Assembly: GCF_003334305.1 (NCBI RefSeq)
Contig: NZ_QOWS01000015.1
Length of the DNA: 64,000 bases
Reading direction: 5' to 3' (one strand)
Source of the DNA: Escherichia coli
GTDB lineage: Bacteria > Pseudomonadota > Gammaproteobacteria > Enterobacterales > Enterobacteriaceae
In this document: positions 14,313-14,980 of the stretch, piece by piece
Layout of the letters: every line of letters begins with the position of its first letter
How positions within the stretch are numbered: the stretch's first letter is position 1
Notes under the pieces: generated by a model
The model's input: the letters and a program-made list of their open reading frames with translations, nothing else
What the model was told of the DNA's origin: nothing
The model's database searches: none
Program-made: the position numbers and the translations under genes

Positions 14313-14327
14313 TCCTTCCTCAATCTT

Positions 14328-14360
14328 GAGTAACCCCGTCGTTGAAGGGTTACTCAATTC
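14328..14360 (+). terminator. Hairpin downstream of yebO (weak terminator)
   Basis: Stem GAGTAACCC/GGGTTACTC directly after the yebO stop; no strong T-run. Confidence 0.4.
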
Positions 14361-14980
14361 ATCCTGATTATACGCACTGCCATGGTGCAACTGCTTCAAA
14401 TTAAAACTCTGGTCTGACTTCAAATAATTATCATATTATTTATTTGCGTAACGGGATATCAGAAAAAGATATTTTCCTCATTAATTTATTAGGATGTTTA
14501 CATCGGATTTGTGATTAAGCGTGGTATTATTTATTAGCGAAACGTTTCTCTCTTGATTTTTTGCTCATTCATCAATTTTTCTTATTTTAAATTTTCAATC
14601 CCTTTGGGGATTGACTTCTCTTTAGGGTAATTGATAGCCGTTAACTGACTGTTTTATGAGAAAAAGTGATATAACTTTTTATTCATTGCATAGCAAAAAA
14701 TGTGATATTGCACGCACTATGTAATAACTTCTCCCACTGGCCTGGAACAACTGAACTTATTGAACTATGTTAGAAACTACGCCAGTTTAAGTATCTGCCT
14801 GAACTGGCAAGGTTAAGCACAATGATATATCGGCGCGTATTCCGTTGCATAAGTGTGCAAAAAAAGTGGAAGACGTATCGAGATTTGTGCGTCTGATCGA
14901 GACATGTTTAAAAATGGCTTGCCATAATTAACGTTGTATGTGATAACAGATTTCGGGTTAAACGAGGTACAGTTCTGTTT

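Follow-up and report, generated by a model that had tools for sequence, protein, structure and literature searches.

The 668 bp between the end of the yebO open reading frame (14312) and the yobF start codon (ATG at 14981) are an ordinary, though unusually long, control region of the yobF-cspC stress operon and contain no hidden gene. Positions are those of the window, i.e. the whole 64,000-nt stretch of Escherichia coli DNA analysed, in which this gap occupies 14313-14980. We read it as a composite of the yebO end, a filler and a multi-promoter yobF-cspC control region with CRP and operator-like inputs, and give this reading a probability of roughly 0.8. Its main features are mostly already catalogued in RegulonDB-type resources; they are collected in Table 1.

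The MG1655 counterpart of the gap (1907592-1908260, 669 bp) is without annotated feature. The exact coordinates, AT-richness and rank as largest gap proposed by the sequence-only reading were borne out. GC content is 35.5% vs 49.6% for the whole window, falling to 26% over 200 bp at ~14395, where the window has its second-lowest value, and the gap tops all intergenic gaps (669 bp, the next being 435 bp) in the MG1655 annotation from 1857790 to 1914816, which covers most of the window's span. The longest stretch of the window without ORFs of at least 60 aa also falls inside it. The phasing of A/T tracts, claimed on the same occasion, is marginal: the 10.5-bp periodicity of AA/TT over 14400-14720 ranks at the 99th percentile when compared with tiles of the window, whereas dinucleotide-type shuffles give only p~0.07 for it and p~0.23 for the entire spacer. 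The locus was found in 5424 of 5426 complete E. coli genomes at a median of one place per genome, i.e. it belongs to the single-copy core. No multicopy signal of a REP or IS remnant was detected in the 5424 genomes, and repeats within the gap are short and at chance level.

Table 1 Features located between yebO and yobF (window positions)
Feature	Position	Strand	Details
yebO 3' end hairpin	14326-14361	+	perfect 11-bp stem TTGAGTAACCC / GGGTTACTCAA, without U-tract
AT-rich filler	14362-14509		alignable within Escherichia only
Weak antisense promoter	14423-14435	-	-10 TATGAT (14435 to 14430), class II TSS 14423
Island A, conserved far-upstream module	14510-14594		cross-genus alignment
TGTGA box of island A	14510-14514
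A-box AGCGAAACGTTTCTCT	14536-14551		perfect palindrome GAAACGTTTC inside
T-rich block of island A	14563-14594
Terminator-like hairpin TCAATCCC-TTTG-GGGATTGA	14595-14614	+	scan match; judged incidental
CRP site AAATGTGATATTGCACGCACT	14698-14718		core 14701-14716, centre 14708.5
Island B, distal promoter	14743-14778	+	-35 TGGAAC (14743-14748), 17-bp spacer
Distal -10, C + TATGTT	14765-14771	+	TSS 14776-14778
Distal-leader 5' fragment, ~80 nt	14776-14856	+	3' end in LB OD 2.0
D-box GCATAAgTGTGCA	14847-14859		conserved box; 14856 3' end inside
E-box TTTGTGCGtCtGATCGAG (TGTGC-N6-TCGAG)	14884-14901		near-invariant in all genera
Proximal promoter 1	14899-14935	+	-35 GAGACA, 18-bp spacer, extended -10 TGcCATAAT (14920-14928), TSS 14932-14935
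Proximal promoter 2	14939-14954	+	extended -10 TGtGATAAC (14939-14947), TSS 14952-14954
Short yobF leader	14933-14980	+	Shine-Dalgarno GAGG 14964-14967

In a comparison of 76 loci, short boxes proved to be conserved and to keep a fixed spacing, with DNA between them that cannot be aligned. Besides the proximal block (14884-14980, ~90% identity across the 76 loci), two islands could be aligned (14508-14590 and 14741-14776), and the layout of a control region of ~470 bp is kept across Enterobacteriaceae. We take the last ~470 bp of the gap as the yobF-cspC control region. Within the species, 10 of 34 polymorphic sites fall in the modules, a weak depletion (p=0.08). The sequence-only reading had counted an absence of transcription and conservation from the upstream ~500 bp as evidence against itself; it stands in this respect, because both exist there. 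This conservation takes the form of short DNA boxes and not of an RNA or a protein: the conserved elements act as DNA sites at fixed spacing.

The gap was also expected to hold the promoters of yobF-cspC, and three class I sense transcription start sites (TSSs) are indeed listed in it (Romero et al. 2014), with the -10/-35 elements of all three promoters lying 4-7 nt upstream of the respective TSSs. The distal start (RVS_(I)-1905820, range 1905818-20, flagged in RegulonDB too; 1907794-96 in MG1655 coordinates) had been predicted from the -35/-10 of island B prior to viewing the TSS table, and the listed TSS then matched. Boxes of the TTGAGCTATGGTAAAAA type were found in 70 of 77 sequences, and the distance from distal TSS to ATG is 201-206 nt in 58 of the 70 loci. 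The long 5' UTR that had been suggested exists on the distal transcript, whose leader measures 203-205 nt, but not on the transcripts of the proximal starts, which have leaders of 27-49 nt, and no sense TSS is listed to account for the ~460 bp further upstream. Island B was also compared with the sigma-32 and sigma-E consensus sequences, with a poor fit or none.

The CRP site is centred 67.5-69.5 bp upstream of the distal TSS (coordinates checked by sequence) and at about -70/-71 in other Escherichia species. It was assigned to yobF by in-vitro Footprint-seq (PMC12871828), and yobF is among the targets obtained by CRP genomic SELEX (PMC3105977). The arrangement recalls class I CRP promoters such as lac and malT, in which a footprinted CRP site likewise stands upstream of a weak -35, and the transcript signal at yobF is seen late in LB growth, a phase of high cAMP. 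It differs from them in that the centre, compared with the canonical -61.5, -71.5, -82.5 and -92.5, falls between the first two, 2-4 bp off the usual positions, and in that the right half of the site is poor (ACGCA). We infer that CRP would activate the distal promoter at high cAMP.

The two proximal promoters correspond to RVS_(I)-1905664 (old 1905661-64) and RVS_(I)-1905644 (old 1905642-44, also in RegulonDB) of Romero et al. 2014, respectively. The primer of the Salmonella pXG10 yobF fusion starts at GTTGTATGTG, i.e. at 14933, matching the former TSS, and proximal promoter 1 was also picked up by a promoter scan. A sigma-S ChIP-seq peak has been reported over ~14812-15049, its listed position (1905641) being 14955. 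The two promoters overlap; sigma-S polymerase binds them in vivo, their sequence is sigma-70-like, and they yield the short leader on which OxyS and CyaR act; this leader is the OxyS pairing region, and CyaR also targets yobF (PMC10965054, PMC5861431). No variable site was found in 14933-14980 among 8 diverse E. coli. Upstream of these promoters stands the E-box, which resembles a CRP-family half-site in its sequence. Its centre lies at ~-39 to -41 from the TSS of proximal promoter 1 and ~-59 to -60 from that of proximal promoter 2, and its distance to the ATG is 98 bp in 62 of 70 loci. A yobF transcriptional reporter carrying ~200-500 bp of upstream DNA reportedly showed no activity in low Mg2+, either in the wild type or in a phoQ deletion. 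An RpoN-holoenzyme SELEX peak has also been reported at the yobF spacer; the sense strand has no match to sigma-54 TGGCAC-N5-TTGC and the opposite strand two 2-mismatch matches lacking GG (window-wide, such matches number 82 vs 81 by chance), so that with no -24/-12 element this peak is not explained by the sequence.

At the other end of the gap, the mgrB-yebO transcript is finished within the first ~50 bp at a strong hairpin. The arms of this inverted repeat are 100% complementary (fold -15.5 kcal/mol, z -4.35), and the Term-seq 'primary' yebO 3' end, present in all three growth conditions, maps to MG1655 1908212/3, i.e. 14360/61. The stem is retained in other Escherichia species, a basal T-A being changed to C-G in E. 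albertii. The next ~150-190 bp may be regarded as a weakly constrained, fast-evolving AT-rich buffer in a place where many relatives keep a hydrolase gene. The proportion of invariant columns in the filler is 47-67% among 4 Escherichia species, and its position holds a 331-aa MBL-fold hydrolase gene in 30 of 76 related loci (the long-spacer genera). A remnant of this gene was rejected for the E. coli spacer (best E 0.6 in a relaxed tblastn); faint remnants occur in some Enterobacter short spacers only. Within the filler lie a palindrome restricted to Escherichia (cGCACTGCCATGGTGCA, 14373-89) and, at ~14382, the point where IS1A has inserted in strains EC5 and 361; IS1 in the gap is a secondary insertion of a few strains only. 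The antisense start, which is directed into the yebO 3' end, is FWD_(II)-1906174 of Romero et al. 2014 (supplementary file 1), class II denoting TSSs with TAP enrichment but no transcription step. For the forward-strand intergenic probe, a signal has been reported on a sigma-S run-off array, and the antisense -10 is not conserved across other Escherichia. In our reading, this buffer also picks up IS1 insertions and a spurious antisense start.

It could be argued from there that all but the last ~100 bp of the gap is non-functional AT-rich DNA, decaying since the loss of the hydrolase gene and coated by H-NS or Fis, and that the TSSs and binding events within it are noise. Outside the genus, most of 14313-14880 has no alignable counterpart, promoter-like matches in the gap are at shuffle level (4 vs 4.0), and the hydrolase-gene remnants in Enterobacter, the unconserved class II antisense start, the within-species test and the marginal periodicity all agree with such decay, which probably describes 14362-14509. 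As an account of the rest it is unlikely: genera with nothing else in common here keep the A-box, island B, the D-box and the E-box in sequence and spacing, whether the hydrolase gene is present or absent, the class I distal TSS falls exactly at the conserved -10, and CRP binding was obtained by two independent in-vitro methods.

Some sequence matches in the gap were set aside. The hairpin at 14595-14614 (fold -12 kcal/mol, z -3.4) was rejected as a terminator of yebO or of a small RNA (sRNA): it falls into the bin with the lowest conservation in the genus (23% invariant), is polymorphic in a non-compensatory manner within E. coli, and no Term-seq 3' end maps there. Promoter-like TGaTATAAc (14667-75), TGaTATATC (14823-31) and the island A block are not claimed as promoters because no TSS is listed there by Romero et al. 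2014.

The composite reading also has to account for the Term-seq 'orphan' 3' end at 14856 (1907716), which collected 264852 reads vs 46490 for the yebO end, i.e. 5.7-fold more. It was found in LB OD 2.0 only, being absent from LB OD 0.4 and M63 glucose, and it was kept in the Term-seq list solely because a TSS lies upstream, the filter demanding an upstream dRNA-seq TSS. The end lies downstream of the distal TSS and 125 nt before yobF, without terminator hairpin or U-tract, in a hairpin loop/arm of an RNA whose fold (14778-14856) is not unusual (z -0.36). It also lies inside the D-box, of which 61 of 70 loci keep 10 or more of the 12 positions. The D-box is separated from the E-box by 36 bp in 56 of these 61 (35 bp in the other 5), the DNA between being unconserved. 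Position 14856 is among the 'upstream ORF' 3' ends listed by Adams et al. 2021 (eLife) and is comparable to their premature 5'-UTR ends; it differs from the others in standing upstream of two more yobF promoters and inside a conserved DNA box. The abundance of this end in LB OD 2.0 implies that many distal transcripts stop after ~80 nt, and in late LB growth we infer that a large share of them would do so. Polymerase may there meet proteins or polymerase on the D/E boxes and proximal promoters, or the leader may be processed; the end could be an RNase product instead of a termination or roadblock product.

An independent sRNA gene, producing a trans-acting RNA of ~80 nt (14776-78 to 14856) in stationary phase, would account for an abundant, LB OD 2.0-specific end upstream of the proximal promoters and for a class I TSS ~80 nt before it that is itself preceded by a CRP site. 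We judge such a gene quite unlikely: 14856 has no intrinsic terminator, the fold is as unremarkable as stated above, 14780-14845 is unalignable outside Escherichia, Rfam has no family in the gap at E<=1 bar a chance CRISPR-DR match (E 0.6), and the yobF mRNA starts from the same TSS. Since the distal promoter can read into yobF, the ~80-nt RNA fits a leader fragment of the type described by Adams et al. Together with the weak, non-conserved antisense TSS at 14423, it is the sole sRNA-like candidate in the gap.

The distal leader of ~204 nt might alternatively be a structured cis-regulatory RNA (thermometer or riboswitch-like), which would explain the heat induction of YobF, reported as post-transcriptional. 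Its length is constant to within a few nt, and the leader structure prediction called for by the sequence-only reading gave a good fold for E. coli 14778-14900 (-40.2 kcal/mol, z -3.7), but no conserved structure: RNAalifold applied to 49 diverse leaders found nothing in the variable part, and the 17 pairs obtained involve invariant sequence only, compensatory changes number 0 and the covariation term is -0.07. Moreover, sister Escherichia species have GTGTCT in the place of the E. coli stem sequence GCACAA without any change in its partner, and those parts of the leader that are conserved are also proximal promoter DNA. At a permissive threshold, Rfam returned chance matches and a single other match, to the cspA thermoregulator (RF01766, 14961-15421, 135.7 bits for a gathering score of 78). 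CspC is a paralogue of CspA and the yobF leader has a cold-box-like GGUACAG; however, the match begins 20 nt before yobF and is carried by cspC coding homology, its 5' part aligning poorly, and in the place of a 159-nt structured leader it is the yobF ORF that precedes cspC, with no covariation upstream. A structured leader is, in our opinion, very improbable.

An unannotated small protein, for which several ORFs of 11-28 codons on both strands and a neighbourhood rich in small proteins (mgrB, yobF, yobH, yebO) might be invoked, is hardly credible, as each of the 18 ORFs with 10 codons or more is broken in one or more of the three other Escherichia species, in most cases by a lost start codon or added stops, no ORF has a convincing Shine-Dalgarno, island A has no conserved reading frame (it differs between E. 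coli and Citrobacter), and the curated MG1655 record, which includes many small proteins, annotates none here. The suggestion that the gap might contain an additional sRNA or short ORF was accordingly abandoned, with no ORF of at least 10 aa shared by all four Escherichia species and no Rfam family.

Returning to the composite reading, its most distal element is island A, whose conservation ends sharply at ~14595. The sequence CGAAACGTTT occurs in the spacer of 69 of the 76 loci, vs 3 occurrences in the remaining 465 kb of flanking DNA, at 382-477 bp from the yobF ATG (mostly 440-462 bp, with one outlier at 584). In the A-box, the left half-site is strongly conserved, with ATCGAAAC rather than AGCGAAAC in many genera, and the right half is looser or degenerate, a feature also seen in many LacI-family sites; in one natural E. 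coli strain, 6409, the G of the central CG is replaced by A (G14544A). The closest likeness is with the operator of rbsD (RbsR, rbsDACBK). The A-box TTAGCGAAACGTTTCTCTCT and rbsO TCAGCGAAACGTTTCGCTGA agree at 16 of 20 positions, the 13-mer AGCGAAACGTTTC of the MG1655 rbsD operator is identical in the A-box, the A-box palindrome is centred on CG, and a TGTGA (CRP-like) box lies nearby in both. The A-box differs from the rbsD operator in not lying over a promoter, being ~234 bp upstream of the nearest TSS and ~390 bp upstream of the main ones. It matches PurR and Cra less well than RbsR; KdgR, PurR, Cra and CytR, considered for the A- and D-boxes by their consensus sequences, were worse than RbsR or did not fit. 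No published report of an rbs-operator-like A-box was found, and among the papers covered by a search on yobF, no title or abstract appeared to concern RbsR. We know of no link between ribose and CspC, nor of DNA looping by the dimeric RbsR and PurR.

Operators acting at a distance, such as lac O2/O3, gal OE/OI and those of deo, likewise lie hundreds of bp from a possible target promoter, and GAGACACGTTTAAA, a related but weaker sequence, is found across the proximal promoter's -35 in most genera. The comparison is limited by the distance from A-box to promoter, which shifts by tens of bp between genera, and by the E. coli proximal pseudo-site, which has T for the central C; looping between the A-box and this pseudo-site is pure conjecture. 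The A-box is a candidate operator of the LacI/GalR type, most like that of RbsR at rbsD, and may provide an additional repressor input conserved throughout Enterobacteriaceae. We put forward tentatively that the A-box and the strictly spaced D- and E-boxes form an undescribed, family-wide transcription factor input to CspC, in which RbsR or a relative represses from ~440 bp. Such a repressor could act by silencing an island A promoter invisible under laboratory conditions or by cooperation with GAGACACGTTTAAA at the proximal -35.

Selection repeatedly favours loss of the global RNA chaperone CspC in ageing colonies and during long-term stationary phase (PMC13162491), and succinate use and PhoP-dependent virulence of Salmonella are under CspC control (PMC10965054, PMC8599858); given these roles, the wiring of yobF-cspC is worth some understanding. 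The ideas of a hidden gene can be dropped, and the long 5' UTR is one of ~204 nt, not of 668 nt. The region joins sigma-70/sigma-S proximal promoters, a distal promoter with its CRP site, the targets of sRNAs and possibly the operator of a sugar repressor, and the A-, D- and E-boxes are conserved cis-elements now precisely placed for work on cspC regulation. If the proposed repressor input is true, CspC, a global RNA chaperone and sigma-S modulator, would be coupled to sugar or nucleoside status.

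The sequence-only reading had taken the 668-bp gap between yebO and yobF (window 14313-14980) to hold the promoters and long 5' UTR of yobF-cspC, with room for an additional small RNA or short ORF. The observation is real and its interpretation partly right, the main features of the gap being already catalogued. Its limits proved exact (yebO stop at 14312, yobF ATG at 14981), within a region of ORFs for KdgR, YobH, MgrB, YebO, YobF, CspC, RlmA and MntP, and it is the largest intergenic gap in the MG1655 annotation over 1857790-1914816, i.e. most of the window's span (669 bp, the second measuring 435 bp). 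The longest part of the window lacking any ORF of 60 aa or more also falls within it. AT richness was confirmed (GC 35.5 % vs. 49.6 % for the window, with a minimum of 26 % near 14395-14594); the phased A/T tracts, alone among the points observed, are only marginal, as the 10.5-bp AA/TT periodicity reaches the 99th percentile of window tiles but only p~0.07 vs. shuffles. The lowest 200-bp GC of the window (23 %) lies near 17120, adjoining a yybP-ykoY manganese riboswitch upstream of mntP (17015-17111, minus strand), a match with a large deletion relative to the model and 41.6 bits against the Rfam gathering score of 45.

The window was mapped base by base onto MG1655, where the gap corresponds to 1907592-1908260 (669 bp, between yobF and yebO, no annotated feature). 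Old U00096.2 coordinates were converted by +1976, an offset taken from the name of array probe IG1905616_1906284, which is exactly this spacer. A search with the gap as query hit 5424 of 5426 complete E. coli genomes, a single time in each and at 95-100 % identity, with no annotation beneath the matches; neither this copy count nor a repeat scan bore out repetitive or mobile DNA.

Features of the yebO-yobF gap and of the equivalent region in a related locus (old, U00096.2 coordinates)
Feature	Position (window unless stated)	Strand	Description	Source
Proximal TSS	14952-54 (old 1905642-44)	+	class I	PMC4681348
Proximal TSS (middle)	14932-35 (old 1905661-64)	+	class I	PMC4681348
Distal TSS	14776-78 (old 1905818-20)	+	class I	PMC4681348
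Antisense TSS	14423	-	class II; reads into yebO 3' end; -10 TATGAT at 14430-14435	PMC4681348
CRP site	14698-14718 (core 14701-16, centre 14708.5)		67.5-69.5 bp 5' of distal start	sequence lookup
A-box	14536-51		AGCGAAACGTTTCTCT; TGTGA box before, T-rich block after	cross-genus alignment
Island B	14742-76		CTGGAAcAA...TTGAaCTATGtTAgAAA	cross-genus alignment
D-box	14847-59		GCATAAgTGTGCA	cross-genus alignment
E-box	14884-14901		TTTGTGCGtCtGATCGAG; runs on into proximal promoter	cross-genus alignment
Metal-dependent hydrolase gene (331 aa)	related locus L008:3808-4803 (equivalent window ~14313-14500)		HxHxDH motif; also in 29 other long-spacer loci

Three promoters fire toward yobF. Their class I TSSs (TAP-enriched, with a coverage step) were reported for E. 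coli K-12 from dRNA-seq and global RNA-seq by Romero et al. 2014 (PMC4681348), two of the three being flagged as also in RegulonDB. The distal start had been forecast at ~14778 from the island-B -35/-10 elements (TGGAAC, 17 bp, TATGTT) before this list was found, and a plausible -10 lies 4-7 nt 5' of each TSS (TGcCATAAT, TGtGATAAC, cTATGTT). Since the primer of a Salmonella pXG10 yobF::sfgfp fusion begins at GTTGTATGTG, i.e. window 14933 (PMC10965054), the middle TSS is, by implication, also the Salmonella one. The proximal promoters are occupied by sigma-S polymerase, which was cross-linked across them in vivo (PMC4447067). Promoters were thus rightly placed in the gap; the long 5' UTR is a single leader of ~204 nt, not 668 nt. 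The antisense start probably explains why the forward-strand intergenic probe gave a sigma-S run-off signal (PMC3141248). It probably reflects pervasive transcription from AT-rich DNA, since sister Escherichia species do not conserve its -10.

An additional gene in the gap found no support in ORF, RNA-fold or Rfam comparisons. Of the 18 ORFs with 10 or more codons, not one is intact across all three other Escherichia species, and no conserved frame covers island A (14510-14594), where the frame differs from genus to genus. RNAalifold on 49 diverse distal leaders paired invariant sequence only, with no compensatory change; 14778-14900 folds well in E. coli (z -3.7), and this fold is lost even in sister species. 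The only Rfam match is to the cspA model, from 14961 onward, and is carried by cspC coding homology.

Transcript 3' ends were taken from the Term-seq data of Adams et al. 2021 (three conditions; PMC7815308). The 'primary' yebO end at 14360/61, present in all three, falls a few nt beyond a perfect 11-bp hairpin, where yebO transcripts end. Another end at 14856, classed as 'orphan' and confined to the LB OD 2.0 sheet, has 5.7 times the reads of the yebO end and marks the end of a major RNA species in late LB growth. Supplementary file 3 of that study, covering ends upstream of or inside ORFs, retains only those whose first upstream feature is a dRNA-seq TSS or that have such a TSS within 200 nt; because the 14856 end passed this filter, a start within the spacer is implied independently. 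The 14856 end lies ~28 bp 5' of the E-box. It may arise where polymerase that started at the distal promoter encounters proteins, or polymerase bound at a promoter, on the D- and E-boxes and proximal promoters; a possible alternative is processing of the leader at that point. A further end at 15093 (MG1655 1907479), inside yobF and 44 nt 5' of cspC, shows the reverse pattern, being present in LB OD 0.4 and M63 and absent in LB OD 2.0. The terminator-like hairpin at 14595-14614 was judged incidental: it has no mapped 3' end, lies in the least conserved segment within the genus and carries non-compensatory E. coli polymorphisms.

Eighty Enterobacteriaceae loci were fetched via YebO, 76 of them with yebO and yobF on one strand. 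The spacer is short (~440-745 bp) in 46 (Escherichia, Salmonella, Citrobacter, Klebsiella/Raoultella and the E. cloacae/hormaechei group) and long (~1455-1580 bp) in 30 (Lelliottia, Kosakonia, Leclercia, Phytobacter, Buttiauxella, Cedecea and several Enterobacter), where a metallo-beta-lactamase-fold hydrolase gene lies directly 3' of yebO, between it and the yobF control region. The product scores 60.8 bits against NCBIfam NF001911, under its cut-off of 144. The gene is missing in Escherichia, Salmonella, Citrobacter and Klebsiella, with no detectable remnant in the E. coli spacer; because faint C-terminal traces (E 0.016-0.15) persist in some short-spacer loci of the E. hormaechei group, it was lost by deletion at least in those Enterobacter.

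Short- and long-spacer loci share the same layout across ~470-520 bp 5' of yobF. Identity is ~90 % in every locus over the final 98 bp (14883-14980); beyond these, cross-genus alignment is limited to short islands at 14508-14590 and 14741-14776, the remainder being alignable within Escherichia alone (75-79 % identity), and 14362-14509 would appear to be buffer DNA. Locus L002, labelled E. coli, probably belongs to a cryptic Escherichia clade, given its spacer (75 %) and YebO (87 %) identities. A contig labelled Chryseobacterium sp. 18061 (L010) bears a typical enterobacterial yebO-yobF-cspC locus, and contamination or mislabelling is likely because its layout is near-identical to that of Citrobacter sp. 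18056 from the same study. Clinical E. coli EC5 and 361 carry IS1A at one identical spacer point, window ~14382 (L084:685-1382; L085:3085-3782). The EC5 gene 3' of yobF (L084:2202-2411), called 'cspE' by PGAP, has the position of cspC. In strain 361 a deletion beyond the IS1 removes the remaining spacer and yobF-cspC, up to a truncated CSS-motif gene (pdeD) beside sdaA, and, judged by MG1655 gene order, also takes rlmA, mntP, yobD, manXYZ and yoaE; this strain is a natural cspC-null, in agreement with reports of adaptive cspC loss.

CRP binds 5' of the distal promoter in vitro: the site agTGCGTgcaataTCACAttt was attributed to yobF in a genome-wide in-vitro footprinting preprint (PMC12871828), and yobF is among the CRP genomic SELEX targets (PMC3105977). 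The preprint gives the centre as NC_000913.3 1907867; by direct lookup that of the printed 21-mer is 1907864. The site lies at about -70/-71 in other Escherichia species. Its location is class-I-like yet 2-4 bp off the usual phase of class I CRP promoters, so that we only infer activation of the distal promoter by CRP. RpoN holoenzyme was reported to bind the spacer and to reduce the amount of yobF-cspC mRNA when nitrogen is limiting (PMC8743547); no sigma-54 -24/-12 element was found in the gap. An NtrC-type-like palindrome at 14373-14389 (cGCACTGCCATGGTGCA; TGCACT-N5-GATGCA in sister species), confined to Escherichia, may be connected with the published NtrC/RpoN gel shifts on the spacer. 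OxyS pairs close to the yobF Shine-Dalgarno and CyaR likewise targets yobF, both working on the short leader.

Both the boxes and the intervals between them are conserved, the latter tightly despite variable DNA in between. The D- and E-boxes are 36 bp apart in 56 of 61 loci; of 70 loci, 62 have the E-box 98 bp from the ATG and 58 have the start of island B 201-206 bp from it. The A-box has a less rigid position, 182-259 bp 5' of island B in nearly all loci. Its motif CGAAACGTTT is present in 69 of the 76 spacers irrespective of the upstream hydrolase gene, 382-477 bp from the yobF ATG (mostly 440-462 bp; a single outlier at 584), and turns up only three times in the other 465 kb of these loci. 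This palindrome, centred on CG, is of the LacI/GalR type, and we regard it as a conserved operator-like site. The E. coli A-box TTAGCGAAACGTTTCTCTCT has a 13-mer and 16 of 20 positions in common with the MG1655 rbsD operator TCAGCGAAACGTTTCGCTGA, the operator of RbsR; caution is called for since other genera differ in carrying ATCGAAAC in the left half and a looser right half. On this resemblance RbsR is our best guess for the binder, with a probability of roughly one in three; no RbsR-yobF link was apparent in titles and abstracts of the yobF papers screened. A further reason for caution is that the table of Romero et al. 2014 has no TSS near the A-box. A repressor there might act from afar, or on a promoter that is silent. 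A direct repeat 91 bp apart (14434-14453, TATTATTTATTTGCGTAACG; 14525-14544, TATTATTTATTAGCGAAACG; 18/20 identical) includes, at 14434-14453, a degenerate second A-box left half found in E. coli only. In most genera the proximal-promoter -35 region (14899-14912) has the sequence GAGACACGTTTAAA, copying the A-box core (A-ACGTTT) imperfectly; in E. coli and a few others its central C is replaced by T.

The A-, D- and E-boxes are the only unassigned elements of the gap. In one E. coli strain (6409, L090) the central CG of the A-box has undergone a natural G-to-A substitution (equivalent window 14544), which again counsels caution over the operator reading; the allele could serve as a ready operator mutant.
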